A DNA stretch of 59,259 nt, counting the filler, from Dirinaria sp. TL-2023a (taxonomy: Eukaryota): NCBI GenBank assembly GCA_051941275.1. It is 6 parts of 6 records of this genome, joined end to end, with 100 filler letters (N's around TTAATTAATTAA, not from the genome) between each part and the next. Parts side by side here need not be neighbours in the genome. Positions count along the whole stretch, not along the records: positions 49,494 to 59,259 come from JAVEBF010001006.1; 5 more parts are not named here. One strand, given 5' to 3'. Below the pieces are notes generated by a model. That model was not told the origin of the DNA, searched no databases, and saw only the letters and a program-made list of their open reading frames with translations. The translations under genes and the position numbers were made by a program. Positions 6,401 to 59,259 of this stretch are shown here, in pieces. Every line of letters begins with the position of its first letter. The first letter of the stretch is position 1.

Positions 6401-6951
6401 TTTCAATCTCTCGAGCATCACAGCGAAGGTTGGGTTGGAGCATTAGCCGGCAGGGCGCACTCCCCTCAGTTGATACTTTAGAAAGCATGGCGACGGCGCT
6501 TGTAGATAATGTCAGGTATCAATGATCAACTTTTGGAGGAATATGTGACGCGAGGCCAGCAAGCATGCTATGAGACTATCTTTTTATTCAATGATGATTT
6601 GACGTCCCAATATAGCAAAGTAAGTTCGGTGGGTCCAGGGGGTAGATAAGGTGAGGCTATTCAATTCTTCCACGTACCTTATTGTTGTGCCACAATTCCA
6701 GGGCTATCATAGGGTTGAATCATTCGACCAATGACGTCCTGCCTTACTAGCTGTTTGCACTTTGCGCGCAGCAAAATAGTGTGCTCGATCAGGAGTTTAA
6801 CAAGCTTTGAAGGCTTCGACCGCCATGAAGCTGGTGTTTCGATGACATAGCGAAGATTAGTCTTCAGAATGAATCTTGTACTCGCAGAATGGGTGCTATC
6901 AGCCGTTGAGCGTCATTGCTGACTCGATATGATTCTTTGAGAAGTTGAACG

Positions 6952-10294: not shown

Positions 10295-11205
10295 AAGGAT
10301 TGAGTTGATGATTGAACGGCCGTGATTTGCAGGACTGGTTATTGCGTGATAAATTAGAAGGGTAATTCCCACACTGTTAGGTTAAGCCAGTAAGCAATAT
10401 CCGTCTAGGCTCATCGCATGTGTGGACCATCGATGACTTTGCTGGATTTGAAGTAAGCAAATCAGCGCTTGTGATTTCCAAGTGACTATGATGTTGGATT
10501 TCCCCACCAAAGGAGGATCACTGCCACATAGACAAATCGTGAAGACCGGATCAGTGCCATGAACAAGGAAAAGAAATAAGTAAACGCAAGATCCAAAACT
10601 AAATCTCCGTAGTACATTAGTTTGACGTATTCTCCTTTATGTTGGGTGTATACTCTGGTTTAATGCTTTGCGTATGGTCAGTCAAGCTTTCGATCAAGTG
10701 AGATCTATGATCATTGGCGCATGCATCGATGATCGAGATGTCACATGGAAAATGAGAATGTTTGCTGCGGGGCTGTCAGGCTTCCCTTACTTGGGACTAG
10801 CGTGAATAATGTCATGTCCAAAAGAGACTCATGTACCTTAACGCGTCGAGCGCGTCCAGACGTTCCATCACTCAAGCCACTCACTCAACAGACGATTGAA
10901 GAAAAAAGGGTCCTATTCTTCAGTGACGGAAATTCAACAAAAATGAGATGATTCTATCATGTCTACGTCAGAACCACTTGCAAGGCACGCCAATGATCAC
11001 TCATCGACCTTCCATAGCACTCTCCCAAGATACTTCTTGTACTTGATGTCGCCAAGTCTTACACCCTTGCTCTTTCCCCTTTTTCCTTCGTGCATGACCG
11101 CCGTCTTCCTTGTCTTCCCTTGCGGACTCTCGCTATCAGGTATCAACCTCTGCTGATATCAAGTGTCTCATTACACTCCTTCGTCTTCGCCATCAATTCA
11201 TCGCA

Positions 11206-14200
11206 ATGGAGGTCCTCGTACGGAATTTGCCTCAAGGCATGACTGAGCGGAAAGTCAGGCACTTCTTCACTCCCTACCTGGAGCCCGTGGGCATAAGCAC
11301 GTATCACTGTCATAAGCTTGCCGGCAAGACTTTTGCCAAATTGACTTTCACAAATACAGTGGCTGGTCAAACGTTCCTCGAGCTACACGGACAAAAAGCT
11401 CCTGGCCGTCGAGGCTTTGACAAGGTCAAGGCCAAGATATATCACATGCGAAAACCGGTCAATATCAGTCAGAGTGACCATGTCCCAGATAAGTTTCTCC
11501 TATCAAGTTTGGATTCGGAAGAGAACAAACACATCTCAGCCGCTCTCACCCAGGCCTCGCACGGAAAATCCACACAACCTTCCGGCCTGCTACGATCATT
11601 TCCCGTTCGTCAAGTCTTGTGTGGGCACTTGTGCTATCCGGATCAGAGGCTCGCTTTCGCTTCCTACTTTAAGGAAGACAGGATAGGGGATATGATCTTC
11701 GGTCGGCGAGCTGTCGTTGTCAAGTTGAAGCCGCGGGATGACCGCATTGGGTATGCACCGAGCCATCAAATTGAAATACCATACAGTAGTGTCGAATCAT
11801 TCACAATCGGCACGTCAGACGATCCAACGGCGACTTTCTCACTAGCCGAAGCCCCAAAGCTTTTTGAGAGGATTGACACGCAAGAAGACGAAGATGCGTT
11901 GTTAAGTACCTTCCAAAGTTTAGTCTTGCACAGTGGCCAGCCTAGGAGTCCTACTCCAGCCCCTAAGCGCCAAAGAATTGCCGCCCTAAGCAAGACCCAT
12001 GAGGTTGTGGTCTCAAGTTGCTTATGCTATAGATTCATACTTCAAGGATCCGGATCCTTACGAGCGATCAGAGCACTGAAAGGTGCAAATGAAATTCCGC
12101 CCATCATCCCTTGGAATACACCAGTCTCGCTTGGCAGTTCCTTCCCGGCCCAAATGACCCAGTTAAACAATGCGTTGTCTGGACGGAAATTTGCCGCTTT
12201 CCCATTCGCACTCAAATTTCAGATACAAGCGCTCGCACAGAATGGCTACCTCCCACCGACGACTGTTGTAGCTTTCATGGATGTCATTGCTGCGCGTTCG
12301 GAGGGTATTAGTGGAGCTACTACTACAAAAGCAGTACGAAGGCTTCTGGGACAAATTCCTTTTGCCGGTCCTGAAACAGAAGCGGCAGAGTTCAGCCTCC
12401 AGACCCTATCCGAGATGTTGGTCGAGAACCAACGGGCGATTGCTCGAGAAGAGTCGTACACGTCAGCCTATCTGGCTCTGCCAGAACACATTTGCGATGT
12501 CTACAAAGCAATGGTTACACCGACAGGCATCTTCCTTCACGGTCCGGCGCCGGAGGTCAAGAATCGCATATTACGGAAATACAGTGACTACACTGATCGA
12601 TTCCTCCAAGTGAGCTTTCTTGACGAAAACGGAGAACCAATGAGATACGAGCGTAATACCTCAAACGACGAGATCTACCATAGCCGATTTAAGAAGGTCC
12701 TGGAAGGTATCATCAACATTGCTGGCCGCGGATACGAATTTCTAGGTTTCAGCCATAGTTCACTTCGGGCTCAGACTTGTTACTTCATGGCGCCTTTCAC
12801 TATGGGTCACGAGCTTTTACACTCAAGAGCAGTCATAGCTAGGCTTGGTGAGTTTAGCGAGATCAGGTCACCCGCCAAATGTGCAGCACGGAGTAAGTCT
12901 TCCTATAAGCCTTTGCTGTTTAGACTACCTGCACGTCATATCATGATAAGACTTTGGTGGAGCGTATCGCTCTACAGCGTCATCGATGGATCAAATGTTG
13001 CCACGCCTGAAATTACGGCGAATAGACGCCACTCAACATCATATGCGCGGATAGTTTCAGCGGCACCAGGGAAAAGGGCAGTCATAACATTAGAGATCAT
13101 CCTTCACGATATTCTTGTCATTTTCCGTGTTTCATTCCTTCTAAGTTCAATTTACTGACCACAGAGTTTTAGTTGGCCAAGCGTTCTCCCAGACTTTCAG
13201 CTCCGTCTCACTGCCTACCGATGCCTTCAAGGTCATACCAGATATTGAACGAAACGGACGAGTCTTCAGTGATGGCGTAGGCACTTGCTCAAGCTCTGTT
13301 TTACAAAGCATACACGATGCGTATGGTCAGTCCCGAAAACTAAAGCCGACTCTATTACAAATCCGCTTTCAGGGTACTAATTCACTTTTGCCTTTACTTA
13401 CGCACGTTCGCTGACAACGATATAGGCGCCAAAGGCATGATAGCTCTTGATACTCGAGTGGAGGGTCATCTCCTTCACCTGCGGCCATCCATGATCAAAT
13501 TCCAAGGATCCCCAGCCAACGATATTGAGATTTGTGGAGCTTCGTTCAAGCCATTGCCGATGTACCTCAATCGTCAGATCATCAAAATCCTTGAAGATCT
13601 TGGGGTTAAGGAGTCCTCGTTCTTGGATCTTCAAGCGGATGCGGTCGAAAAATTACGAATGACGACGCGAAATTCAATCAACGCTGCGAATTTTTTGAAG
13701 CGTCAGCATGTCGGTCAAGCGGCTAGGTTGCCTTGGTTAGTCCGTGAGTTGATGGACATCAACCTCTCATATGAGGATGATGGCTTCCTGAGAAACGTAG
13801 TTGAGCTGTGCGTCTTGGCGGAACTCAGAGAAATTAAGCATAGGTCGCGAATCCGGGTTGAGGAAGGCTTGACTTTGTATGGTATCATGGATGAAACCAA
13901 TGTCATCAAAGAAGGACAAATCTACTGCTCGGTCCATAACGACGATGGACCAAGGATTCTCACCGGTCCTGTGGTCATAACTAGATCTCCTGCGCTACAC
14001 CCAGGTGATATTCAGGTTGTCGAAGCCGTGGACGTGCCCAAAGGCTCGTCTCTTCGGGCATTGCACAATTGCGTCGTTTTCAGCCAGCAAGGAGATCGTG
14101 GTGAGTCCTGCGATAGCTAGTGATACGAACGACATACATTAATGCTATTCCAGATCTACCTTCCCAGCTTAGTGGAGGAGATTTGGACGGTTTGTCCTTG

Positions 14201-23380: not shown

Positions 23381-25899
23381 ATGGGAGCAATGGCGCCTTC
23401 TACATCCAGGTCTCTTCCTGTTTCCCTTAATCCTCCAATGCGCAAACATCTACGTTCTCTCTTTCAGCACCCTCTACCCAAAGCCACTCAAGAACTCTTC
23501 ACGACCTACCTTGAGGATCAAGCACCACCTTCTGGATCCGACACAGGGTTGCCACTCTCATCGCCCCTTACGCACACAGCGACAGCCTCTCGAATCATTC
23601 CTAAAACCTCCAAAGCTTCAGCCAGTGGAAATGAAGCCACATTGGACGATTTTGTCGAGTTCATGCGGAGGCCCGAGATGAGCGCCGAGGCACCTCTAGG
23701 GAGGGAAGAAACAGAAGAGATGGGATATCCGTTGTCAAATTACTTCATCAGCAGCAGCCACAATACTTATCTGACGGGGAACCAATTGTATTCCGAGAGT
23801 AGCACCGATGCTTATAAAAACGTACGTTGCTTTGAATTGGCCGTGGAGCAGCCTAAGGAGCTATTGGAGGGCGACAGAGGCGAAGCACGCATCGTTCACC
23901 GAACAAATACAAGGGGAAAGAGGAGGGAATTAGAATCTAAGATACGGATGTAAAGATTGCTGGCTGACGCTAATATCTAGTGTCTTCTTCGCGGCTGCCG
24001 CTGCATCGAAATCGATGTTTGGGATGGTGAGCCAAGATCCCCGTCATCTACATCAACCTCCGACGACCGACAAAACAGCACTTCTTCCAGCGCGAGCAAC
24101 GAGAAGCATCATCGTTTCCGCCCTAACGTTCTTCGCTCTCTGTCCCCACACTCTCACAAACTCTCCATCCGTTCAAAGTCTCCCACTGCTACCTCTGAGT
24201 CAGCTACCACAACCACTAGTAACAGCGAAAGCGAATCCCTGGCTCTGCCAACACCATGGCAATCAGCTTCGACAGCCATCCGTGCGGAGCCGCGAGTTCT
24301 TCACGGCTACACCCTTACCAAGGAAGTTTCCTTCCGCAAAGTCTGTTCTGCAATCCGAGACGCCGCTTTTGTAGCCTCGGATCTGCCGGTGATAGTGAGC
24401 TTGGAAGTGCATTGTTCGCGCGAGCAGCAGGAAATTATGGTAGAAATCATCGAGCAGAGCTGGAAAGGGATGCTCGTGCGCGTTCCCCCGGAGCCATGTC
24501 AAGAACTTCCCAGTCCGGCGCAGCTACGTGGAAAGCTATTGGTGAAGGTAAAGTACGTTAAGCCTGAAGTGGCAAAAAAGAAAGTGGTCAGAGAGAGCGT
24601 TCAAAAGCAGCTGCAAAGGGAGAAGTCTAGGTCGAGCTCTTCAGAGAGCGAGAACCAGGACGCCGTGGATGGGACCGAAGAGAAAAAGAAGAAATCCTCC
24701 ATCATCGAATCTCTAAGCTCCCTAGGCGTCTACACGCGCAGCTACCACTTTAAGAGCCTCGCCTGTGCCGAAGCACTCGTACCTACACACGTGTTCTCCC
24801 TCTCGGAGAAGAAGCTGATGGAAGTCCACGAGTCTCATGGGCCGACGCTATTCTCCCACAATCGCAATTTTCTCATGCGAGCTTTTCCCTCGGGAATGCG
24901 TGTTTCATCTTCGAATCTCGACCCCAGCGTCTTCTGGCGTAAAGGCGTCCAGATAGTGGCATTGAACTGGCAGAAGTACGACGAAGGCATGATGCTGAAC
25001 CGAGGCATGTTCGCCGGCAGCGGGGGCTGGTTGCTCAAGCCGAGGGGCTATCGAGGAACCGCGAGGGAGGCGACGAAAGAGGGATTGAGCCACCAATCGC
25101 AGGCCGACGCAATTAAACATTGGACGCTGTCGTTAACCGTCGACGTTATCGCCGGCCAAGACATCCCCCTGCCAATCGGCGATTCGAGAGCAAGCGGCTT
25201 CCATCCTTACGTAAAGTGCGAGCTTCATGTTGAGAAACAGGAGGAGCGCTCAGGTGCGTCGATCGAAGGGGGAGGGAGGAGCAAAGATGGCGAATACAAG
25301 ATGCGCACTCAGACAAGCAAAGGCGTCGAGCCTGATTTTTCTGGCGGTGAGAGAATTGAATTCTTGAACATTCCAGAGGTGGTCCCGGAGCTCAGTTTCA
25401 TGAGGTGAGTGAGTGAGTCTTTTCCGTGGCTCTCATCGTGATGAGGTCGCTGCCATAATGAGAAGGATGTCTTGCAGGAATGCATGCGCTCCGGGAGCTA
25501 CTGTATCCTCGAGACACGTTGCAGCTCTCCCCTCCCACACTTGTGTAAACAAGCGGTGAGGTTACACATGTGACGTGCTGTGCTGTTGCCACATTTACAA
25601 TCGGACGATGTACAAGGTTTCTACAAGCATGGCCGAGGTGTGAAGAAAGATCGGCAACGCGGCCGAGGATGGAGAATTTACATGCATCAAATGGCAAAGA
25701 AACCAATTCGATCGCTAACATTTCCCTCCGTAGGTTTAAAATCCATGATGACGAGATCGGCAAAGATTCACTGGCCGCATGGGCCTGTATCAGGCTTGAC
25801 CGACTGCAACGTGGCTACCGCTTCATCCGCTTGCTCGACGCAGTCGGTATGCCTAGTCAGGGCGTCCTGTTGGTCAATGTTGACTTCTCAATACGCTAA
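23381..25899 (+). CDS. Phosphoinositide-specific phospholipase C (X, Y and C2 domains); introns 23822-23980 and 25405-25733
   Basis: [70 protein letters not shown] and C2-type GYRFIRL. Confidence 0.93.
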
Positions 25900-32483: not shown

Positions 32484-35137
32484 TCATGCCTTCTCCGCCT
32501 GGGCTGCAGCACTCGACTCGGCTGCATTTCTCTGGACGTCATCCCGGGAAGCTTCCATCGACCTCCCTCGGATAGGGATGCTATCCTGTGCGATGGCTGT
32601 CAAACTCGGCTTGCTCTCGCTGGCCCCGCCACTGTTGCGCGGAGGGCTCTTGGCCCTCTCCTTTTCCGCTTCCCGTTCTTTCCGCTCTTCCTTCGCCTGC
32701 GCGACTTTGGCCTTGAACCAGCCGATCGGCCCTTTCTTCTCTGCTCCTTCGTGCGCCGCTTCTTTTTCTCGGCTCTTCTCCGTGTGCTCTTTCGACGGAG
32801 TGCTCTCATTGCTCGACGATTGAACGGGGGGTAGCCGAGAGCCCTCGGTAGCGGTGGCATAGCTTGTGCCGGTCACCTGAGTCTCTTCCGTCATGGACTT
32901 TGTTGGCTTCCCTGCGCTGGTGACAGATGTACTGCTCTTCTCTGCAATCGGATTGACTCCAACTTGCGAGGAGGACGTGGTCGGTTTTTCACTGGTTTTT
33001 TTCGATGAGAAGGATGACCTCCAGCTGCGCTTTTTCTTCTCGCTCTTGGTCTTGCCGTCGTCCAACTGATCTAGCTCTGAGAGGTCAGTTATAGACGAAC
33101 GGGAGTGCACAGATCCAGCTGGCGACTTTGATGGCTTTAAAGCTTTGGCCGGAGACTGTAAATGCTGATCTCCCACACCCAAACTGGCCTCTTGCGTGAT
33201 TTCTCGGGCTGGTGTGGGCGTCTCAGAAGGAGTGGCAACTGTATTGGAGAATGTTGGAGGAATCGAAGACATCGGATCATTTGTGACTTGGCTTCCGACA
33301 CCTGGCGTGGGCAGTGGCGTATAGAAGACCTGATTGGCTGGAGAGTCTGGCGAGGCATGTAATGAATGAGTAGAGCTGTGAGCGCTTGGGTTGGAGCTTT
33401 CAGGGCGCTTCTTGCGCAGCTTATTCGGCTGTCTAAGCTCCTTACGCTCGCCATCGCCTGTTGGAGATTTCGAGAACAGACTGGAGACCTTGCGTTCTGC
33501 CTTAGGAGCACCACCTGTATGTTGGGCACTCATTAACGGCGAAGCCTGCAACGTAAGTTTCTCACTTTGGCCAGGCTTGCTGCTGTTTTGCTCCGGGCCT
33601 GGTGCTTCAGCTACAGCATTCAGCGCCGGCGATTGAGCGGTAGGCGTCGCGGACGAGTGTGTTGATGGGGACGGATTTTCCCGATCACCTGGAGCTAGTC
33701 TGGAACTAGGTGATGCTGTTCGGGCTGTTGCGGCAAGGTAACTAGGCTTGGTGGCCTGTGGCGTGGGCGAATCCAATGGGTTTCTGAATCTCGATGCTGA
33801 TGGTATACCTGGGGATCGCTTTGATGGAACCGTATTGCTCCTGTGCACGCCGCTGCCGCTAAGACTTGCGTGTGGACTCCCTGGTGGAGGTGAGATCGGA
33901 CTGGGTACGTTCTGCGAAGATCGTGAATTCTTAGATGATACAGATACGTTTCTGCGGATGCCACCAAATTTACGAAGGCTATCAGCGCCGGCGCTTGCAT
34001 TGGATGCAGATCGGCCAATCGTTGGAGTTTTTGGCTTGGGAGAGGCTGGTTGACGGGGCTGCACTCCACTCTGGACTTCCCTGACAGTCTTCTCGTCTGC
34101 AGCGGTCCCGCTCATGCCAATCAGGAAGTTGTCCTGGTTCTCGATCAAGAAAATGATGACATCTTGGCTCAGCCGATACTCCGAAGGGCTCATGTCGTGG
34201 GTCGGATGTGACAGCATCCCGGGTTGGAATATAGCCGCCAAATTGGCAGATGTCATGCGGTTCAGCTCCGCCTTGGAAGAGAAAACAGCGAGGAGGTCGA
34301 GAATGTAGAGAAGTAATTGGCGATTTAGAGGAGGGATCTCGGTGATTAAGCGCTGATACGTAGTGATTGCTGCAGCATGATCGAAGTTGCCGATATCTTG
34401 ATGTTGTGCCTCGACATCACCTACAGCTTGCGCCTGGTGACTCCTGAGTGGATCACGGAACCTTTCGTAGTATTCGAGCGGAACTATCGGCTGGGGTAGC
34501 TGATTGAGATAGCGTCGCAGAATATTTGCAGCGTCATGAACTGTGTAACCTGTCCAGTCCAGACCTTTCCCGTAACGATCAGGAGTATCGAAAACAGCCT
34601 GTAAATCCTTGATCCGTTTTGCCGAACCGCTCAAACGAAAAATACCCTCGACATCAGTAGCTGAAAGAGACATATCGTTAGCATTTACATTGTGTTTCCC
34701 TGTCAACAGCAAGATTACCTTTCTCTTTCAGGAAGACGCCGCATTTCGCCACAACTATTGGAACATATCCGTAGGTAAATTGTTTGCCCTCCGAGTCCGT
34801 GAGAGATATTGCTACATTCGCATACTTGATGCTCGTTGATAGAGGAACTCCGAAAATGCCAGACGGTGCTACTAGATTGAAGAAATCACATGTCAGCATA
34901 CCTGTTAGATCAGATGAAAGGTTGCCATGCAACACTCGAAGCTAGGAAACTATATACGATGTGATTCCTCATGATACGACTGTGCTCAAACAATACATTG
35001 CAGGTGGTAAAGCCATGCTTGCCAAGCAAATCGGTGCGACTGTGTAATAGCTCACCTTTCTCTTCCTCCCTCTTCGCATTCTTTTTGAAATTCTTCCACC
35101 AAGATGCCAAATCACGTTTTGAAGGCGGGGACTCCAT
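32484..35137 (-). CDS. Rho GTPase-activating protein (Sac7/Bag7/Rga5-like); introns about 34872-35055 and 34661-34718
   Basis: GIFGVPL, YVPIVVAKCGVFLKEK|ATDVEGIFRLSGS (arginine finger), HDAANILRRYLNQLPQP and NRMTSANLAAIFQP. Confidence 0.92.
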
Positions 35138-44615: not shown

Positions 44616-47600
44616 ATGGCGGATAAGCCCGCCTTTGTAGCTCGCAAATTTCAGGATGCTCAAAGACTGGCGGCGAAAGGATTTTCATGTCCACTGTGCT
44701 CGGAGACCTTCCAAGCGGAGCCGAAGCTCTGGGAACATGCAAAAAGTCAGCATAAGCAAACGCTGGGGTACGCGGGCTCGGTGGGGGAAGCAGAGGCCCG
44801 GAAGCGGTTTCGTTCAGAAGCTGTACCAAAGGCGTATGTCATGACAGTCAACCGGCGCTGGGGACCTGCGATACTTGGAATGCCTCGGTAAGCCTATTGG
44901 GAACTGTGTTAACATGTCGCTGTATCCAGGCACAACGATTTGCGGAGAGTAATCCGCGATACTCCACCTCCTATACCAAAGCCTTCATCAAACGATAATG
45001 ATTCCATGAAACCAAATATTGGAGAGGATGTGAGGGCACGATCTCCTATTAGGTCGACTTCTGCTCAAGCGTCCATGCTAACCACGGAAAAGCAAATTCA
45101 TGACCTTGGTAAGCTTACATTGGAGCAAGATCAGACACCGACGCCTTCGCCAGAGTCTCAGCAAAACTTCCCATCTTCAAACCCACTCAAACGAGGGGCA
45201 ATGGCACGTAGTGGTTACTCAGACTTTCCCATGGAAGACGATCCATCTGTACATGTAAAGTCACGCGCTCGCCATGCCAAGACGCAATCTGCCAGCTCAC
45301 TAGGGAAAAAGGGCGCAGACAAAAAAGTAGATCGACCGCTCGCCAATGATCCTAGCTTTATGCGAAGCTCCGTTGGTTCAGGCAAGAGGCTCTACGATCC
45401 AGAAAGGGACAATCCAGTTTCCAACCCTGTTGCTAGGAAGAATAAGGCCTCGGACCGTGCACGTACGAACCATCGAGGTGGAAGTGACGATCCACGATCC
45501 CGTATGTTCCATTTAAGAGATTTGCCAAACGTAGATACCAAAGATCGTAGGCTGCAAACCCCCCAGCAACCACCAAAGTTTTTGGAGAAGTTGAACCCTC
45601 AGGACCATGAAATAAGCGAGAGCAGCCCACCAATGGATCGGTCTTCCAGCTCCAATGAACCACATGATCAGGACATCGAACCAGACCCGGAGCTTGATTC
45701 GGAGCCAGTCCTGCTGTTACAACCCGAGACTCGACCTATATCACATGACCAGCTTGTCGTTGAGGTTAAAGGTATCTATGCCGGTTTAGTCATGGTAGAA
45801 TCTAAATGCGCCGATGTCGACGAGAAGCAATCCAAGGCAGCGCAGGAGAAGGACCCGTCTCGGCGAAAAAGATTGAGCAATGAGCAGTGGCAAGCACTGA
45901 TTCATCTACATAAAACGCTCTTGCACGAGCACCACGACTTTTTTCTGGCCTCACAGCATCCCTCTGCAAGTCCGGCTTTGAGTAGATTGGCGGCCAAATA
46001 CTCCATGCCAGCAAGAATGTGGCGCCACGGAATCCATTCGTTCCTAGAGGTCCTTCGACATATGCTGCCCGAGTCTCTTGATCATATGCTGGCTTTTGTA
46101 TATATTGCGTATTCAATGATGGCCCTCCTGTATGAGACCGTTCCAACATTTGAAGACACCTGGATTGAGTGTTTGGGAGATTTAGCCCGTTACCGAATGG
46201 CCATTGAGGAGGACGACATCCGGGATCGTGAAATTTGGAGTGGCGTTGCGCGTCTTTGGTACAGTAAGGCAGCCGATAAAAACCCAGGTACAGGTCGTCT
46301 ATACCATCATCTGGCGATTCTTGCTCGACCTTTCACTTTGCACCAGTTGTCATTCTATACCAGGTCTTTGACATGCGTCGTACCCTTCGAAAATGCTCAC
46401 AGTAGTATCATGACTCTCTTCAACCCAATCTTGAGCGGCAAGAGTTCTGCGCACTACCGGCCAGAGTCCCTGGAAGCAATCTTCATCAAGTGCCATGGAA
46501 TTCTATTTTGCAATCTCTCCAGAGAGCAATTTGATACCACTCTAACCCAAATGCAAGATGGCTTGTTCGACAATTATATTGGGCGAGTCGGGGCGAAATT
46601 CAAAGAACAAGGAGTCTTTGCAACTCTGACCAACATCGCTGCATTGTTCGAGTACGGGGCTCTGCGAGCAAACGGTCAACCTAAATCTATTTTCCGCCTT
46701 GCATACAACGAAATCCGTCATCGCAACTATATCGGAGTGCAGGCAAAATCTCAGCATTCTGACGATCTATCTCTCGACCTGAACGGCAGCGAACACCAGC
46801 CCAGTCCACCTCCATTTCACTCGTTAATCGACAGTCTCACATCTGAGGACCTTCGATCTTCTCTAGCGCTGATACGTCCAGCATCGAAGTTCATGTTCAG
46901 CATCTTGTCAATCTGTTTGCGGCGTATTGGCGACAGGAATGTCTTTCCCTCAGTGCATGTCTCATTTGTGTTCTTGTTGAGCCTGACGGGCGTCGATAAA
47001 GCGATGAAATACGTGGAGCAGGATGTCCCGTGGGTGGAAATCTGTTCTTTTCTCAATGCCTTAGCCAAGCCAGAAGTCATGACTGAAAAAGTCAGGGGTC
47101 GGGTCTTCCCCAAACCTGACAATGGTATTGGGCGACCACTACCAGACGATTTTGGTATGCGTGGGCTGTTATATGCAGAGGATTACTTCCCCGTGAACTG
47201 GTTTTCAGATGCTGCGGTGGATGATGAGGAACGCTCATTAGAATTACCATCAATGGCGGCACCTAGGGTTGAACGGATACTGTGGCTTGGTATACAGATA
47301 GCTTCTGTATGTTCAGACTCCTGCTTTCCTATCTAATGAATGCTCACTGACTTCGACCAGCTGAAACGCTGGATCGCCTATGACTCAACTACAAACCATT
47401 TTCATACTACTGACTACGCAGATAAAATCTTGACCGCATCAACACAGCCTCTCGAAGAGCAGATGGAGATCAGTGTCTCGGACACAGATGACCAGCACAT
47501 GTCAGAAGCCGTTCCGCTGTCGAAGGAGTCGGAAAAAGTTCCAACCTCGCCGTCGAGAGAAGGAACAGACGCCCTCTCGCATGTTGACCCCACCTCTGCT

Positions 47601-50905: not shown

Positions 50906-53235
50906 CTACCTAAGACTAATATCCACCAGCATATCAAATGCCTGATCGCTCTCGTCACTCAAATTAGTCTTCCCGGACGGGAGTAAGGAACGCAACCATT
51001 GGGCCTGCCCGCGCGCCTGATTCGCCTCTTTTTCGTATCTGTCAGGTTCGATGAGGTAGGCCTTCATCAGCAGATGCTGGAAGCGCGCACGCATGCCCAG
51101 CGGCATGTGGCACAACCTTGCTATCGCGAGCGCATTCTTTGCCTCCCAGATGGCCAAAACAGCCCCGTTCTGCTTCACGCAGATGCAGGAAAAGCGATAG
51201 GAGACAATGCCGCTGAGCCAGCTGACAGAGGGCACATCAGCGGATCCCTTTAGCAATTGGCCAGCGCGGTAGATATGGTCGATTGCCTCGGCGAGCTTCT
51301 CCCATCGCAGGTAGAGGTCTGCCTTTGTCTGATGGATTCTGCGTCGCCATGTCACTGGCCGCACTTTAAGGTCAAAGAATGGGGCGACAAGCTTACGACG
51401 CAAGTGTACATGAGTCTCCTAAGCCTGACGCGAGGATCATGGCCTGGTCGAGTTTCTTTTCGGCGCCGTCAAAGTCCCCCACAGAAAAGAGATTGCGCGA
51501 GAAGTGGAGATTATTATGGCACAAGAGTCGGATGTGCAATTCGTCGTTGTGGCTCTCTAGTATTTCGCGCGCTTTACTCAACCACGACCTGGCTTCATCG
51601 TGCCAACCCATTGAATCTAATGCGATGGCGAGGTGGTGGTAACAACTGGAGATTTGCAACTGTTGTGGTTGTCCGAGCTTCTCCCTGATCGCAAGACTCT
51701 TCATCGCTCGGTAGTGCGCGGAGTCGAAATCGCCCTCTGCCCGGAGATCTTGGATGCAAAGGAGCAGCAGGATATCGGCTTCAAGAATCGGCTGTTTGGC
51801 AGCATCTGGTAGCTTATAATACGCGTGGCAGCCTGCATCCATAAGCAATGATAGTATGCCGGCTGTATCGTTGTCGTGAACAAACCAAGCGCAATCTGCC
51901 ACTAGATGGCAAAATTCCACGGTCGGCTTTAAAGGTATTGGGTGATTTTGTGAGGCCCTCCAGTTATCGGCGACTGAAACAATATGTCCGATGTATTTGG
52001 CACCATCTTCCCACGAAGAAGCCATGAAGACGAGACTGCCGCGATCGGGGAATTTGTCTAGGAGCAGCTTCACAGCAACATCAAACCCTTCTTGGTATTC
52101 AACAGGCGTGGCCTTAGAGTGGCATTGTCCTTGTACTACGCGGTGCAGGGAAATCTGCTGGGAAATTCTGTGATACTTTACCAAAGCATGGCAGGTAAGC
52201 TGTTCGATAGCATCACCGCAACTACTCAATGTTAGTGGCCGAGATGCTCAAGATACGCTCTACACGGTAGACGATACCTTACACCTTCTTTGCAAAAAAC
52301 CGGCAGACCTACGCTCTCTTTCGGCGGCAGCAACGCAGTGGGGATGGAGTGTGGAGCGTAGAAACTCAGGATACAAAGACAAGCGCGAGCGAGTGGGTCA
52401 AGAGTACGAAATGAGACATTCCAAACAGTATCGTGTGCGTCGCGGTAACCAATATGCTCCCAGCTTTCCTCCTGTTTACGATACAGGTTTGCTGGGTACC
52501 TCATATGAGTAGATAGAAAGTCCTCTACTGGCAAGTTGTGCGCATTTATGAAAGCCGTCAGTAGACTGATAGTGAGAGGGTAACCGTGTAGTAACGATGA
52601 TAGCTCTTGAGCAGCCAGTTGTTCTTGTGGTGTTCCTTTGGGTTGCTGCAGAAGATGTAAAATGAACTTGGTGCTATTTTCGATTGCAAAATCTGTGATT
52701 GGTACGCTTTGCTCAGCCGCCGTAATCGCAACCACACTCTGCCGAGTGGTCACTAGTATTGCGCCGTGGTCTGTTGCACGCAGGCAAGTCTCTAATATCT
52801 GGTGGTTCTGAACATCATCGAATATCATAAGCCATTTCGCGCCTCCAACAGTCAGTCTACGATATAGTGAGATTGGACACACGCACAAGTTCGCTGCAGC
52901 CAAGCTACTACGAGGAGCTTATTCTCCTGATGGGATCGAGATTCTGCATTCTCCATCTTGAGACCGTGCACGGCTATTTCGGTGAAACCCTGTTGCAGGG
53001 CCAGAGTGTTATCAGCCGACAACCAGAGTATAGCATCTAATTCGGCTTGCTTTCTGTATGCATACTCAAGAGCGGTCTGAGTCTTGCCGACTCCGGGCGG
53101 CCCATAAATGGCCAACGATCTGATGGCTGCCAATTCTTTGCCAGGCTGCAGGACATCGTCAATGACAGCAAGGGTGTTTTCACGACCGAAAAACTGTCCA
53201 TTTCGCGCGGCAGGAAGAACACAGCATTGAGTCAT
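50906..53235 (-). CDS. Fungal NLR-like STAND protein (NB-ARC + TPR-like repeats), about 723 aa; introns 52843-52886, 52222-52277 and 51339-51396
   Basis: FFGRE, Walker A GPPGVGKT, Walker B WLMIFDD, ILVTTR, GYPL (GxP), SLHRVVQ (MHD-like), then helical repeats. Three introns join four ORFs in frame. Confidence 0.85.
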
Positions 53236-55338
53236 GGCAGAATGCTTCTTGCAGAGGACTGAGCGACACAATATTGGAGCACGCAACACAACAAAGGTAC
53301 TATATGCAGGTACAATTAAAAGTAGGAGTATGTACTGTTGGTACAGCATATTGAGAAGTGATAGAGAATTTCGGGCCGAGGTCATGAGGCTTGGGGGTTG
53401 TCGCTGAGCAGTTTCCTTTATCAGCCAAAGTTGGAGATTTCAGGAACGATCCGGGTCCTGTCATAGAATTCTGCCAGCCCGTGATACGTTGAAAAGAGTG
53501 GAGAATGCGACTCAATTTAAAAAAAAAAAAAAAAAAAAAAAAAGGAATCTAAGACGTTACTTCTGTACAAATACCGACTCCTCTCGACCCCATCATCATG
53601 ATGCATATGCCTTAGTCAGAACCATATCGCAGAAGCGCGGTGGGCTGTAGAAGGTGGCCTTGCAAGCAGGAATAACTGGGTGCATAAGCAGTTAGGCTAG
53701 GGTCTACGACGCGAGATTTGCCCATCTTAGCCAGCAGAACTTCAACAAGGTGACGGGCAGCATCTGTCACTATGCCGACTAACCCGAGTAGTGAGGGCGC
53801 GGGGCTGAGCAGCGGAGAGTAAGGTACCCACGGTCGATAGTGGGATGCTGGGAAGTTGAATGTGAAATGAGGCAGGTACTATGTGGAGCGTGTTTCCGGG
53901 ATTGGTAGTCTCCCGTTGCATGACACAGTCTTTGTTGAGTGGCTAGGCGGCAGTTATTTGCTTAGATGATAGCTTTCTCCAGTTCTTTCCCGTAGTTCTC
54001 GTCAATGATTTTCGAGAAAATGCCACGCGTCAACGGTCAGTACTCGGCCGGCCGTTTAGCGGTTCACAAATCCATAGCCAGTCCACTGAAAGATCACGTA
54101 TTCGCCACAGGACACGCCTCTGGCACCTGAGAAGATGGTATGTAGGGCAATTCACGAACTTTCGTGCTTTTGGCAGAGAGGAGCGAAACTCGAGCTGCAT
54201 GGATCGATTGACACTGCCGCTGCGGCAAATGATGCAGAGTAATAGTGAGCTCGTTCTATAAGGGTATGGAGGGCTGAAGAGAAAACCAGAAGCCAATGGC
54301 ATAGAGATGCCTCAGGCAGAGACAGGGAACAATGAAGGAGCGCCATATGACGATGAAACGACGATCGGAATCGAGCATTGATCGATACAAGATGCTTGCT
54401 CGTGTCGCGGAGTAGAAGAAGGGGAAGGAGCCAGATATAGAAAGCAAAGTCAAGAAGATGCCTCAGGCATGGAAGCTTGCCTTGATGGTGCTACAGTCGC
54501 AGATGATGAGCGCTTGATCGTTGGTACGATATGAGCATAAGGCACCACCTCAGTCATGATGGTCGAAACACCTTTCATGTCTACAAGCCTCAGGATGATT
54601 GATGTTCTAGCGAAGAGAAGCATCCGAGTCGCTGTGAGTGATGCCAAGTCTTTTAGTTCTGACGCGAAGCCAGCGCGACTCGATGCCAAGCCTCCTCCCT
54701 TGCAGGACAGGCAGGCGAGCCAAGACCAAGGGGACTCGCTCTGTCCAATTCCATCCGTCCAATCGTTTTCCCGATTCCCTGTGCAAAACCTGCTTTCGGC
54801 AATGATGGGAGGGCATTGGAAGTGACAGGTGATAAGTCTGCCGCTACACTGGGACCTTTTCCGCCAATGACGAGGGTGGAATTGTGCCAGATAGAAAAAT
54901 TCCATTGCACATCTTCACGCTAAGCCACGAACAAGTCGCGCCTGAGGATAGTAGAAGGACGTGCCTCCGTGCGTGTTCTCTTCCCTTGACACGCACTTCC
55001 CCCACACCTTCCACAGTCCACACACACTCCCTCGACTCCCTCCCAGCTGAGGCAAGGCGAGCCAGGGTGTTTGAAAGAGATATACCCGCTGCTGCCCACT
55101 TCTCGTTTCTTCCTCAGGCTTCCAAGTGTTCTTCTCTCAATCTACACTGCCATTTCATTATACACATCTCAATCGTCAATTGCTATTATTTATTCCGCTC
55201 TCGATCTATCAGTCTCGGTATACCTCGCATATCCACTGCTCCATTCTCTGATTCTCTTGAAATCGCATCCATTCCAATAGCTCGTCACTCTGCGATTCGA
55301 ATACCACAGCCCTTCAATCTTCGTCACTCCTCGCAGTA

Positions 55339-56587
55339 ATGGCCGCCGCTACTGCTCCGTCGTTGAACACTCGGCAGCCGCTCGGCTCCGTTAGTGGAGC
55401 CCGGCTTCGAAATCTGGGTCAAGTCAAGAACAAGCAGAATGGTAGGTGTAGTAGAGTGTGTTTCTTCCTGAGCCGTGATATCGGTTGCCAAGCTTTATCA
55501 ACACGGTCGAGCAACATATCCAGATCTTATCACCGCTACAGTATGCTAATGAGTATTTGAACTTTCTTCAGCTCTCACAACTTTCTCTTCTTTCAAATCA
55601 CCCGCACCTCAACCTCAGATCTTCAACGATCAAGATTCGGAAAACATCGACCCATCTACCTTCAATAAGCAAGGCTTCTCATCATCCAAGTCATCCAACA
55701 CCGCTCTTAACTCGGACCCATCCAGCATGAAGGCTTTCAAGGCTGCCCACTTCGTTCTCTCAAAAGCTACCTCGGCTCGTCCTACCAACGCTAGCTTGGC
55801 CCCTGTTGCAGGCCTTAAGCGTAAGGCTTCTACCATCGACGACGCACAATCATCAACCTCCCTCTCGGATCGGCCCATCAAGGCTCTCCGTTCTACACCT
55901 CCCCCTAGCATTCCCGCCCCCGCTGGTCGATCTCCTGTTAAGGCCAAGCGGTCGGGTATCTTGTCACGTCGTCGCGTCTCCGCCAAGCCATTCACTCGCA
56001 TCGACCCTCCTTTCGGTGCTACCAAGAACGGGCTACCTTTCTCCCTTGATACCGCTCTCTCGGGTACTCTGCCTGGTTACAAGCCAAAGCAGCCCAAGGT
56101 CCTCGCCACCCTTCTTGACTCTAAGCCTAAGCGGTGGTCTTTCACGATCCACGAGGATACAGAGTCCCAAGAGGCGACTGAAATGAGGCATTCAGAAACC
56201 GTTATGGAGCATTCAGCCTCTGCTCTCGACATCTCTGATGACGAGTCCTGTGTTACTCGAAAAGATGATCGAGGTAAAGAGAACATCCCTCCTGTCGACG
56301 ATCTCAACGCTCCTGTCCGCTCTACCTCGCGGAATGATATGATGAGCGATGATTCTCGTGCCCCCTTGGCCGACCTCAATGCCAAGGATTACTACGCTCA
56401 AGGATGCGATGAGTCATCCTTTTTCACCGTACCAGCTGAGGGATCCACAGACTCCAACGAGGAGCAGTCGAACCAGTCCAACATATACGACAAGGAGTCG
56501 TCGGACATATACAACTACGATGCCACCATCACCGGCCAGTTCCCGGACCCCGAGTCGGCTAAGGTTGTGAATGAGGTTGCTGCATAA
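55339..56587 (+). CDS. Disordered protein of about 372 aa carrying APC/C degron motifs (candidate Acm1-like inhibitor); intron 55442-55571
   Basis: GTAGGT...GCTAAT...CAG intron joins exon 1 in frame to ORF 55727-56587. Motifs RQPL, SPVK, FTIHED, KEN and RAPLADL. Confidence 0.8.
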
Positions 56588-56752
56588 ACCCGATGGCAGA
56601 TGCAGCAACAAACAGGCATGAACGGTTTACCGAAAAAATAAAATCGAAAAGCCAAAAACATTTCCTTCGTATGTTGAACACCAAGCACCTCCGGATGCAC
56701 ATTGCTGTCTGCGATCATGCCTAGTATGTTTAGCTTGCGACTTGCTGCATTG

Positions 56753-56910
56753 TTTTTGGGGAAATTGGCGAAAAGCTGCAGGCTATACCGATTAGCTCGC
56801 TTTCGTACTTCCCAATAAGTTTGCGGCTTTCTGGGGTGGGTTTTGGGGAAATGGCGAAAGGCAGCAGGCTATACCGATTAGCTCGCTTTCGTGCTTCCCA
56901 ATAAGTATGC
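56753..56910. repeat. Two-copy tandem repeat (period about 87 nt); each copy is self-complementary
   Basis: TTTTGGGGAAAT(T)GGCGAAA...GCAGGCTATACCGATTAGCTCGCTTTCGT(A/G)CTTCCCAATAAGT occurs twice. Confidence 0.92.
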
Positions 56911-57502
56911 ACCATCGCCTATTCTGCTTCCATAGTCGGATCACGGGTTGCTGAAGGCTCCTCGTGAGGAAGGGGAATGATCTGGTGGGAACAGTGGAAG
57001 GCTGAGGTGTTTAGGATCTGTGGTTGATGCATGGGCACTGGCTGTGATGGAGGGCTGGGGATAGGCGCATAGGACTTTGTTGTAACTTTCTAGCCGAAAG
57101 ATTCATGGAGATAGATAATGTATGCAATGCAGATACCTCAACCTAATCCACTTCCTTCAATGCCGTGACCTGGATGGTAACAGCCGCATTGGCTCATTCA
57201 GGTATCCCCGTTTTCCAAAGTGGCGGCGAATACCTTAGACTTGATGGAGTCTTGACACCTGGATCCCAAGTGTGACTTACCTATCTACCTCCCTATCTCC
57301 CTATGAGCCTACCTTATGTAAGGTAAGGTAGTTGCTAAGGTAGTAACAGTCCTGTTCTTAATGCAAGTTGGTCCTGTCAGTACTATCGCTATCCAGACGC
57401 GACTGCGCGCTCGACTGGCTGTAATAACACAACCGGCGTAATCGAGTCACCATTGCTCACAACGTCTGATTTGGTTCATTAAGACAATGGATATGAGGCG
57501 CA

Positions 57503-59259
57503 ATGGAACCGCTGCTGAAAGAATGGAGGCAAGATGCCATGAACAAGCACCAATATGAGTCTGCTATTTACATCGGCGATAAACTGCTAGCCCTCACTGG
57601 CGATGCTAACGATGCGTTCTTCCTCGCCCAAGTACACTTTTCCACAGGAAACTACACAAGAGCCCAGAGCTTTTTGACCAAACACAATCTCGTCGACCAT
57701 AGCCCGGCATGTCGATACCTTGCGGGCCATTGCCAGATCAAGCAGAATCGCTTCGATGAAGCCTTGAACATACTCGGGGACAAGAACCCCAAACACCTGA
57801 TAGCTACTTCGAGCAAAGTCCGTCGAAAGCTGCAGCATACGAGCGGGAATCTTCGGAATGGAACCAAGAGCGGGAAAGCTGTTGGCCGCCCAGATCGAAT
57901 AGACAAGAGTGAAGAAAGGGAGAGGGAGGATGTGTCGGACATCAAGTACGAAGCTGCCATGTGCTACCTGCGAGGGATCTGTTACGCCAAACAGAATGCC
58001 TTTGATCGAGCAAAGGAATGCTACAAAGATGCCGTCCGCATAGATGTGCAGTGCTTCGAAGCCTTCGACCAGCTCATGAAGAACTCTCTGATGGCCCCAG
58101 ACGAAGAATGGGAGTTCCTCGAATCCCTCGACTTCGACTCCGTGTCGACAGAAGGCGGCTCGAGCGCCCAAGAAGCCGCCCAATTCGCCAAGATGCTCTA
58201 CACAACCCGGCTCTCCAAATACAAAAACCCCACCGCTTTCAACCACGCCACCGAAACACTCTCCACTCACTACAACCTCGCCTCGAACCCGGATCTTCTC
58301 CTCTCCAAGGCCGAGCTCCTCTTCACCCAGTGCCGCTTCAAGCAATCGCTCGCCATCACCACTTCCATCCTCGACGCAGACGAGTACAATTTCACCATCT
58401 ACCCGTTGCACCTGGCGTGCTTGTACGAACTGAACGAGACGAACATCCTCTTCCTCATTTCCCATCGCCTTGCGGATCTCCACCCCGACGAGCCGGCCAC
58501 ATGGCTAGCGGTAGGCGTGTACTATCTCTCCATCAACCAGATCGCGGAAGCGCGGCGCTTCTTCTCGAAAGCATCGATGATGGACCCTCATTTCGGCGCG
58601 GCATGGATCGGCTTCGCGCACACCTTCGCTGCAGAAGGCGAGCACGACCAAGCCATCTCCGCCTACTCGACAGCCGCACGCTTGTTCCAAGGCACACACC
58701 TCCCCCAACTCTTCCTCGGGATGCAGAACCTGCAACTCAACAACCTCACCCTAGCATCCGAATACCTCTCCGCCGCCAACCAGCTCTGTTCGACGGACCC
58801 TCTCCTCCTCAACGAAATGGGCGTCGTGCTCTACCACCAAGACCACCTCCCCCCCGCCATAACTCTGTTCCAGCGCGCTCTCGCCATCGCCCAAGAAATC
58901 GACAGCGAGCCCACGGCGTGGATCGCCACGCGCGCAAACCTCGGCCACGCCTACCGCCGCTCCTCGCAGTGGACCTCCGCGCTGGCCGAGTTCGAAGAGG
59001 TCCTCCGCATGGGCGGCAAGGACGTCAACATCTTCTGCGCCAAGGGTCTCGTGCTCCTCGATCTCGGCCGGCCGTGGGAAGCCGTCGCGGTCCTGCACGA
59101 GGCGCTGAGTGTCAGCCCCCAAGACCCCGTCGCGACGGATTGTCTCGCCCGCGCGCTCGAGGAGAATGCAGCTGTTGCGCGTGACGCGGTGATGGAGGAG
59201 GAAGGGGAGGAGGCGTTCGAGGCGCTTATTAGACGCGAGAAGGAGGCGCTGGGCATGGG
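57503..59259 (+). CDS. CDC16: Anaphase-promoting complex TPR subunit Cdc16/Cut9 (APC6); runs off the end of the window
   Basis: MEPLLKEWRQDAMNKHQYESAIYIGDKLLALT, AKECYKDAVRIDVQCFEAFDQL, WLAVGVYY, ARRFFSKASMMDPHFGAAWIGFAHTFAAEGEHDQAISAYSTAARLFQGTHLP. No stop codon in the window, so absent from the ORF track. Confidence 0.93.
   Translation, partial: MEPLLKEWRQDAMNKHQYESAIYIGDKLLALTGDANDAFFLAQVHFSTGNYTRAQSFLTKHNLVDHSPACRYLAGHCQIKQNRFDEALNILGDKNPKHLIATSSKVRRKLQHTSGNLRNGTKSGKAVGRPDRIDKSEEREREDVSDIKYEAAMCYLRGICYAKQNAFDRAKECYKDAVRIDVQCFEAFDQLMKNSLMAPDEEWEFLESLDFDSVSTEGGSSAQEAAQFAKMLYTTRLSKYKNPTAFNHATETLSTHYNLASNPDLLLSKAELLFTQCRFKQSLAITTSILDADEYNFTIYPLHLACLYELNETNILFLISHRLADLHPDEPATWLAVGVYYLSINQIAEARRFFSKASMMDPHFGAAWIGFAHTFAAEGEHDQAISAYSTAARLFQGTHLPQLFLGMQNLQLNNLTLASEYLSAANQLCSTDPLLLNEMGVVLYHQDHLPPAITLFQRALAIAQEIDSEPTAWIATRANLGHAYRRSSQWTSALAEFEEVLRMGGKDVNIFCAKGLVLLDLGRPWEAVAVLHEALSVSPQDPVATDCLARALEENAAVARDAVMEEEGEEAFEALIRREKEALGM

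Follow-up and report, generated by a model that had tools for sequence, protein, structure and literature searches.

Does a gene of the lichen fungus Dirinaria sp. TL-2023a encode a protein that inhibits the APC/C (anaphase-promoting complex/cyclosome)? Inhibitors of the APC/C set the G1/S and mitotic-exit switches; to our knowledge, accounts of Acm1 are confined to budding yeast and those of Emi1 to animals. The gene in question lies at 55339–56587 of a joined stretch of 59,259 nucleotides (hereafter the window; assembly GCA_051941275.1), in the part that comes from record JAVEBF010001006.1. A sequence-only reading had proposed that its product is an Acm1-like pseudosubstrate inhibitor. We found this product to be a member of a large unnamed family across Pezizomycotina, which carries an ABBA motif, a KEN box and a destruction box (D-box) in conserved order. 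Multivalent ligands of APC/C coactivators are known in kind; what is new here is an unnamed Pezizomycotina family carrying the ABBA–KEN–D-box grammar. As argued below, a pseudosubstrate-type ligand may be the single most likely mechanism, at a probability of roughly 0.38, by analogy with Acm1.

Three elements carry this argument:

56135–56218, plus strand: ABBA-type motif W.FTIHEDT (F190–D195 at 56141–56158) with a helix predicted at residues 197–215
56276–56293, plus strand: KEN box KENIPP, placed by alignment conservation
56357–56419, plus strand: D-box RAPLADLNA with the extension.[DE][FY]YA.GCD..S (family consensus R.PLGDL.A)

Translation confirmed the motifs that had been read from the DNA, each at its proposed place. 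FTIHED is encoded at 56141–56158 and is of the ABBA type. KENIPP follows at 56276–56293, with its lysine 45 residues after the phenylalanine of FTIHED, and RAPLADLN at 56357–56380, with its arginine 27 residues after that lysine. The candidate cyclin-dependent kinase (CDK) site SPVK is at 55931–55942, and RQPL begins at 55372, in exon 1. Residue numbers of motifs refer throughout to P0001, the product of exon 2 only and not the full-length protein.

We counted motif order in 377 fetched relatives and scored per-residue conservation in an alignment of 186 non-redundant sequences. An ABBA match was present in 371/377 relatives and a KEN box in 377/377, and ABBA, KEN and RxxL occurred in that order in 371/377. 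The motifs are thus conserved in orthologues, and the ABBA–KEN–D-box order, like the CDK site, is real and conserved across filamentous ascomycetes. In the ABBA motif, F190 was kept in 185/186 sequences, I192 in 181/186, histidine or tyrosine at 193 in 182/186, and aspartate or glutamate at 195 in 186/186, with W188 just upstream in 176/185. The two 'x' positions of the motif varied more than the defining positions, as the pattern predicts. The KEN box, whose family form is [RG][GN]KEN[IV]PP, had K, E and N each in 186/186, P239 in 173/186 and P240 in 186/186. The D-box kept R262 (186/186), P264 (163/186), L265 (184/186), G266 (148/186), D/E at 267 (159/186) and L/M at 268 (182/186), and it ran on into a conserved extension, for a combined consensus of R.PLG[DE][LM].A.[DE][FY]YA.GCD..S. 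Position 9 of the D-box was never asparagine (0/185). Linkers in the family measured 35–48 residues from F to K and 25–75 residues from K to R, with medians of 40 and 33. Conservation in this cassette, flanks included, ranked with the highest anywhere in the protein.

The protein had been described as disordered, and modelling agreed. An AlphaFold2 model of P0001 (337 residues), built on a 25-sequence alignment, had a mean predicted local distance difference test (pLDDT) score of 53, with 183/337 residues below 50. The model was confident only at the ABBA motif with helix 197–215 (mean pLDDT 88 and 82 for the 10-residue blocks starting at residues 191 and 201) and at the D-box with its extension (71, 84 and 71 for the three blocks that make up residues 261–290). 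ABBA, KEN and D-box each combined a match to the pattern of the motif class with conservation in orthologues and a position in disorder.

Short linear motifs are degenerate, and the matches could have been kept for a cause that has nothing to do with the APC/C, such as binding to some other partner. When P0001 was shuffled 200,000 times with its composition preserved, ABBA alone appeared in 1.7% of the shuffles and KEN alone in 5.1%, which leaves some room for such an explanation. The ordered triad of ABBA, KEN and RxxL at comparable spacing appeared in just 5 of these 200,000 shuffles, and three motif classes have kept a fixed order, exact defining positions and variable 'x' positions in more than 180 non-redundant sequences. 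An explanation outside the APC/C is accordingly quite improbable in our judgement. The triad is more than chance, and its conservation is a stronger argument for this than the shuffles.

Because three classes of coactivator-binding motif keep their defining positions in a disordered chain, we infer that the window protein probably docks on Cdh1 and/or Cdc20. The conserved core would then act as a three-site docking cassette, made of the ABBA motif and its adjoining helix, the KENxPP sequence, and the D-box with its aromatic extension. The linkers would be long enough for the three sites to lie on one WD40 propeller at once. Such a multivalent grip could yield a tight, poorly processed ligand; that is, a pseudosubstrate-type competitor that restrains the APC/C–coactivator complex. 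Several coactivator-binding motifs in one disordered stretch are also found, according to the published accounts consulted, in the ABBA–KEN cassettes of BubR1/Mad3 and in ABBA-bearing cyclins, but here there is no TPR or cyclin domain and the motifs stand in another order.

We favour a pseudosubstrate role because the elements stand in the order that He et al. 2013 (PMC3690534) describe for Acm1. In the sections of that paper used here, Acm1 has a D-box at the N-terminal end, then an A motif (61–70) with a helix after it, a KEN box at 98–100 and D-box 3 from R119. The A motif and the adjacent helix sit on Cdh1, and proline is favoured after KEN. Both Acm1 and the window protein are disordered, and both have an N-terminal degron-like motif, an ABBA/A motif and then a helix (predicted in our case), a KEN box with proline, a D-box, and a CDK site. 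As an Acm1-type A motif, F.I[HY].[DE] was present in 371/377 relatives, beside the modelled helix at 197–215 (pLDDT 82–88). The spacings are of similar magnitude: F61 to K98 in Acm1 is 37 residues and K98 to R119 is 21, compared with 45 and 27 in the window protein, whose family has medians of 40 and 33. D-box positions 3 (P/A), 5 (G), 6 (D/E) and 7 (L/M) agree with residue preferences for which PMC3690534 gives a structural explanation. Both proteins also have a non-consensus residue at D-box position 9, which is valine in the inhibitory D-box of Acm1 (PMC3690534), and conserved sequence beyond the D-box; according to PMC12401543, which cites Qin et al. 2019, Apc10 is affected by the residues that follow the D-box in Acm1. 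The Acm1 D-box core as quoted in the sequence-only reading agrees with the published R119 I120 A121 L122 K123 D124 L125, then S and V (PMC3690534); for the A motif, the residues named in the sections used are F61, Y64, E65 and E66 (PMC3690534). The pseudosubstrate role is favoured further because the cassette is unusually well conserved, flanks included, and because asparagine is absent at D-box position 9 and the aromatic extension is conserved.

The cassette is not the only conserved part of the protein. The other elements are as follows:

55372–55398, plus strand: N-terminal conserved motif RQPLGSVSG, then RLRNL..KNKQN, in exon 1
55634–55654, plus strand: DSENIDP, a putative degenerate KEN-like xENxxP, placed by alignment conservation
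55922–56068, plus strand: central conserved block with AGRSP(V)K, KxKR.GILSRRR, [FY][TS]R[VI]DPP[F] and PFS[IL]DAAL.GT
55931–55942, plus strand: CDK-consensus SP site within the central block, beside the basic cluster KxKR.GILSRRR
56225–56245, plus strand: acidic LDISDDE patch, placed by alignment conservation, with a casein-kinase-2-type S-x-x-E context
56546–56563, plus strand: DPESAK, the remnant of a C-terminal motif whose family form is hydrophobic-x-hydrophobic-W-E-S-x-S-A-K

The central block was conserved as strongly as anything in the protein and had no recognisable relative: G118 was kept in 182/186 sequences, R119 in 168/173, S120 in 177/185, P121 in 176/186, R142 in 182/184, P146 in 182/185, S157 in 184/186 and A161 in 182/186. 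The CDK position of the family is the SP site of AGRSP, and the window protein has the full CDK consensus there. Lying beside a basic cluster, this site may form a CDK-switched nuclear-import signal. In the acidic patch, LDIS[DS]DE in the family, L218 was kept in 181/186, D219 in 180/186, S221 in 181/186 and D223 in 177/186, and casein kinase 2 might be its kinase. The D[ST]EN[IV]DP motif was conserved at E23 (171/172), N24 (172/172) and P27 (173/174). A degenerate KEN box is a plausible reading of DSENIDP because the KEN receptor also accepts NEN and GxENxP sequences, as described in He et al. 2013 (PMC3690534).

Toward the C-terminus, a W[EDA][SDN]-type motif was present in 313/377 relatives, with E325 in 164/182, S328 in 146/176 and A329 in 141/176. 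Its tryptophan has been lost in P0001, P0005 and P0007, and the window version, QFPDPESAK, is degenerate. Members from Pleosporales have a different form, I.I[FY].DE.

At the other end of the protein, where the counts come from 378 fetched proteins, the consensus R-Q-P-F-A-P-L-D-G-x-R-L..L.S.KN.QN was present in 168/378. Many gene models miss the small exon 1 that carries this motif.

In the mechanism that we propose, the amount of protein would be set by MBF-type transcription at G1/S, and also by the invariant CDK site beside the basic cluster and by the N-terminal degron-like motifs RQP[F/L]..[LV] and xENxxP. The promoters of the family are consistent with the first of these. In the metagenome loci L001–L080, we scored the region from −1300 to −200 relative to the match, and ACGCGT, an MluI cell-cycle box (MCB)-type element, occurred there at 0.65/kb compared with 0.15/kb elsewhere in the loci, a 4.3-fold difference. 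At least one ACGCGT was present in 24/42 dereplicated loci, and ACGCG[ACT] was likewise about 4-fold enriched upstream of family genes. Values for control CG palindromes were 0.83-fold for TCGCGA, 0.29 for CCGCGG, 0.76 for AGCGCT, 0.25 for GACGTC, 1.0 for AACGTT, 0 for CACGTG and 2.0 for GCGCGC. The enrichment fits G1/S-type transcription; MBF reads the ACGCGT element in yeasts, and it may do the same in these fungi.

Several observations weigh against a pseudosubstrate inhibitor of the Acm1 kind. ABBA, KEN and D-box motifs also occur in ordinary APC/C substrates, according to published titles and abstracts, and because the motifs are shared in this way the cassette alone is not proof of inhibition. 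No Acm1 was recovered from all PDB chain sequences (4BH6 included) at E up to 10, and a Pfam scan of the window protein and 46 relatives (47 members) gave no family match, to Acm1, securin or otherwise. Of the two options that had been offered, 'homologue of Acm1' is not supported and 'analogue of Acm1' is plausible; the likeness would be one of analogy, not demonstrable descent. Nothing in the published Acm1 layout corresponds to the central block (residues 117–165) or to the C-terminal W-E-S motif, which suggests that these two serve another partner and a function of their own. In Acm1 an xEN sequence lies between the A motif and KEN, whereas here it is near the N-terminus. The KEN box of Acm1 is overlapped by the CDK site S102–P103 (PMC3690534, sections used), whereas no S/T-P falls within KENxPP here and the invariant CDK site is 115 residues upstream of KEN. 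Relative to the Acm1 layout, a 14-3-3 site and a K motif were not identified in the window protein. The N-terminal RQPL, called D-box-like in the sequence-only reading, is present in the sequence and is, in this lineage, a variant of the RQPF of most relatives. That it is a D-box is doubtful because position 4, which is not the canonical leucine in the family, is F in 160/168 relatives and L in 6/168. The window gene's own 1 kb upstream held no ACGCGT and one half-site.

The genomic neighbourhood adds to this side of the balance. The gene for an APC/C subunit, Cut9/Cdc16 (APC6), lies 0.9 kb downstream at 57497–59257 on the plus strand and runs off the window end (best PDB match 2XPI, E 7.8e-156). 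We rejected Cdc16 as a functional neighbour. It was within reach in 15/80 metagenome loci, all of them from close lichen relatives, where it stood 3–6.5 kb upstream in either orientation, and none of 12 more distant loci that extend 5 kb or more to each side had it. The linkage is not conserved synteny.

The motifs shared with substrates and the conservation outside the cassette raise the question of whether the protein is instead an ordinary or 'privileged' APC/C substrate. In that case the real job, with some partner, would fall to the central block or the C-terminal motif, and the degrons would time the destruction of the protein, for example by early or checkpoint-resistant degradation, as reported for ABBA-bearing cyclins. 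A central block as well conserved as the degrons, and a C-terminal motif in most of the relatives, speak for such a substrate, and ABBA motifs are known in substrates as well as in regulators in the literature consulted. However, no partner domain is recognisable, there being no Pfam match and the central block being of low confidence in the AlphaFold2 model, and three degrons with conserved flanks, a helix, a D-box extension and an N-terminal degron-like pair exceed, in our judgement, what a substrate usually needs. Neither is the preferred asparagine ever found at D-box position 9. We consider the substrate explanation somewhat unlikely, though next in line after the pseudosubstrate-type ligand. 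Sequence alone does not settle the choice between inhibitor and substrate; inhibition rather than turnover would be possible at somewhat less than even odds.

If the pseudosubstrate reading is extended to the family as a whole, the protein could be a Pezizomycotina-wide APC/C inhibitor that evolved independently of Acm1 and animal Emi1 and clamps Cdh1/Cdc20 with the ABBA motif and its helix, the KEN box and the extended D-box, a proposal that we hold more tentatively still. Such an inhibitor would be made at G1/S, controlled by CDK and removed via its N-terminal degron-like motifs. If true, it would give multinucleate hyphae an inhibitor-type off-switch for APC/C–Cdh1. A conserved three-motif coactivator ligand, with carriers among lichen fungi as well as in Histoplasma, Colletotrichum and Sclerotinia, would be a testable candidate regulator of hyphal nuclear division.

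The C-terminal motif also bears on whether this is the securin of Pezizomycotina, that is, a separase inhibitor whose pseudosubstrate is the acidic-hydrophobic sequence at the C-terminus (e.g. EIEIWES in lichen relatives). We compared the family with securins of human (PTTG1) and yeast and, by description, with the Pezizomycotina securin family of PMC6690013. All are disordered and fast-evolving with a KEN box as well as a D-box, and the length of our protein is securin-like. In most relatives the acidic-hydrophobic motif includes a glutamate and resembles the (S/D/E)xExx of securin pseudosubstrates, as given for human securin (EIEKFFP, PMC6858450) and as a consensus (PMC10317155) in the sections of those papers used. 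Securins are described as diverging beyond recognition (PMC6690013, in part), and one ESM Atlas cluster, ranked twelfth with a score of 0.78, had 55% of its members in PF04856, which we treat as a lead only. Yet PF04856 matched 0/47 members at E up to 10, searches of the PDB turned up no securin, and the arrangement of the protein is different. As those accounts describe published securins, the pseudosubstrate starts the separase-binding segment, which continues downstream through an LPE motif (PMC6858450, PMC10317155); here the candidate motif is at the extreme C-terminus followed by 10–60 residues of poor conservation, and neither an LPE motif nor a separase-interacting segment was seen downstream of it. 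The glutamate of the motif is not kept in every member, and in the window protein and the two relatives closest to it the motif has degenerated. The KEN box and D-box lie in the C-terminal third, whereas the Pezizomycotina securins exemplified by Chaetomium globosum XP_001225358.1 are described as carrying their KEN box and D-box at the N-terminal end, along with a glutamate patch that is invariant (PMC6690013). A securin is therefore improbable.

The C-terminal motif and the central block could likewise be read as those of a sororin-like cohesion regulator, with a disordered body that is KEN-degraded and CDK-regulated, a Pds5-binding stretch of the YSR/FGF-like kind and an aromatic-acidic 'Sororin domain' at the C-terminus. 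Such a candidate has been raised for these fungi: a hidden Markov model of the Sororin C-terminus matched XP_001941430.1, a member of an uncharacterised Pezizomycotina family, at E 0.089, and that weakly matched family was flagged as a candidate (PMC11148194, in the sections used). With Sororin and S. pombe Sor1 as described there, our family has in common its KEN box and CDK site, a short stretch resembling YSR/FG, and an aromatic motif that is conserved at the C-terminus. Our family also includes Dothideomycete members, and its [FY][TS]R is followed by SFG (as [FY][TS]R[VI]DPPSFG). According to the same sections, Sororin requires a K/R-rich stretch, a polar linker of 10–20 residues before the C-terminal domain, and an F..[VI]D.[FY]-type pattern (PMC11148194). 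None of these was seen in our family on inspection of the alignment; the region before the motif is acidic, and the motif itself is hydrophobic-x-hydrophobic-W-E-S or I.I[FY].DE. ABBA and D-box motifs, which are extra here, are not among the sororin features described in those sections (PMC11148194). We regard a sororin as very improbable, below even the securin.

How widely is the family distributed, and has it been named? A search of a 90%-clustered collection returned 649 relatives at E up to 0.001, and a profile search returned 598 clusters at the 50% level. Among the matches listed, the family extends across Pezizomycotina in at least eight classes: Lecanoromycetes, Candelariomycetes, Eurotiomycetes, Dothideomycetes, Leotiomycetes, Sordariomycetes, Geoglossomycetes and Sareomycetes. 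The Eurotiomycetes members among these matches were Onygenales (Histoplasma, Blastomyces, Paracoccidioides and Trichophyton), and Colletotrichum and Sclerotinia were also among the carriers. No member with a functional name was found among the matches listed, where the labels were 'hypothetical protein' or 'thymidylate kinase'. Searches of PDB chains by single-sequence phmmer and by hmmsearch with a 25-sequence profile gave chance matches only, to an Ohr protein and ubiquitin. One member had a weak Pfam match to the N-terminal APC/C-binding region of cyclin A (E 0.17). In the ESM Atlas, the whole protein matched unnamed ascomycete clusters, and the cassette alone gave no usable named match. 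We found no description of the family in the literature on securin in filamentous fungi/Pezizomycotina or on Acm1.

The 'thymidylate kinase' label is wrong, as P0077 and P0163 have no such domain. It arose because of a fused gene model, P0242, which is 549 residues long and has PF02223 at residues 343–525. A real thymidylate kinase gene adjoins the family gene in 9/80 loci (L047, L051, L056, L059, L060, L062, L069, L071 and L073). At the least, then, the label of this family is a correctable annotation error.

The structure of the window gene could be established from RNA. The candidate gene consists of two exons on the plus strand, with a coding span of 55339–56587 and a protein of 372 residues:

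55339–55441, plus strand: exon 1, 34 codons and 1 base by translation, encoding MAAATAPSLNTRQPLGSVSGARLRNLGQVKNKQN
55442–55571, plus strand: intron of 130 bases (donor GTAGGT, branch-like site gctaat, acceptor AG), seen from an RNA contig
55572–56587, plus strand: exon 2, residues 36–372 (337 residues, identical to P0001), with a TAA stop at 56585–56587

A lichen metatranscriptome contig (X4 record 6) skips the 130 bases, which have GT..AG ends, and joins 55440/41 to 55571/72; it is then collinear from 55571 to 56900 without a further joint. The contig is about 94% identical to the window, which indicates a close relative and not the same strain. In addition, the homologue P0005 (80% identical) reads straight through the junction of exon 1 and exon 2. 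The intron is confirmed by the RNA contig from a close relative, and the gene is transcribed in that relative. Thus, the span first proposed for the gene was right as a coding span, but the intron at 55442–55571 lies inside it.

The 3' flank of the gene contains, at 56732–56903, two tandem copies of an 86-base unit that are 84% alike. Short RNA contigs (X2, X3) cover only this repeat, on both strands and at a higher word depth than the gene, and a further RNA run, X1, gave none. An Rfam scan of 54500–57600, the 3' repeat included, gave no match above chance.

Elsewhere in the window, we noted several other genes. Three adjoining frames at 51393–53439 (minus strand) had AAA_16, NB-ARC and TPR_12 matches, and together they look like an NLR-type (NACHT/NB-ARC-TPR) fungal gene that is intron-split or broken. 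A gene at 11098–14120 (plus strand) encodes an RNA-dependent RNA polymerase (RdRP) with the fungal RdRP-associated PH-like domain, a component of RNA silencing. The N1221/DUF3402 protein at 6949–9093 (plus strand) is one that we take to be striatin-interacting and Far11-like. The remaining genes encode an Est1 DNA/RNA-binding-domain protein (44913–47333, plus strand), a RhoGAP (32487–34727, minus strand) and a phosphatidylinositol-specific phospholipase C (23981–25405, plus strand).

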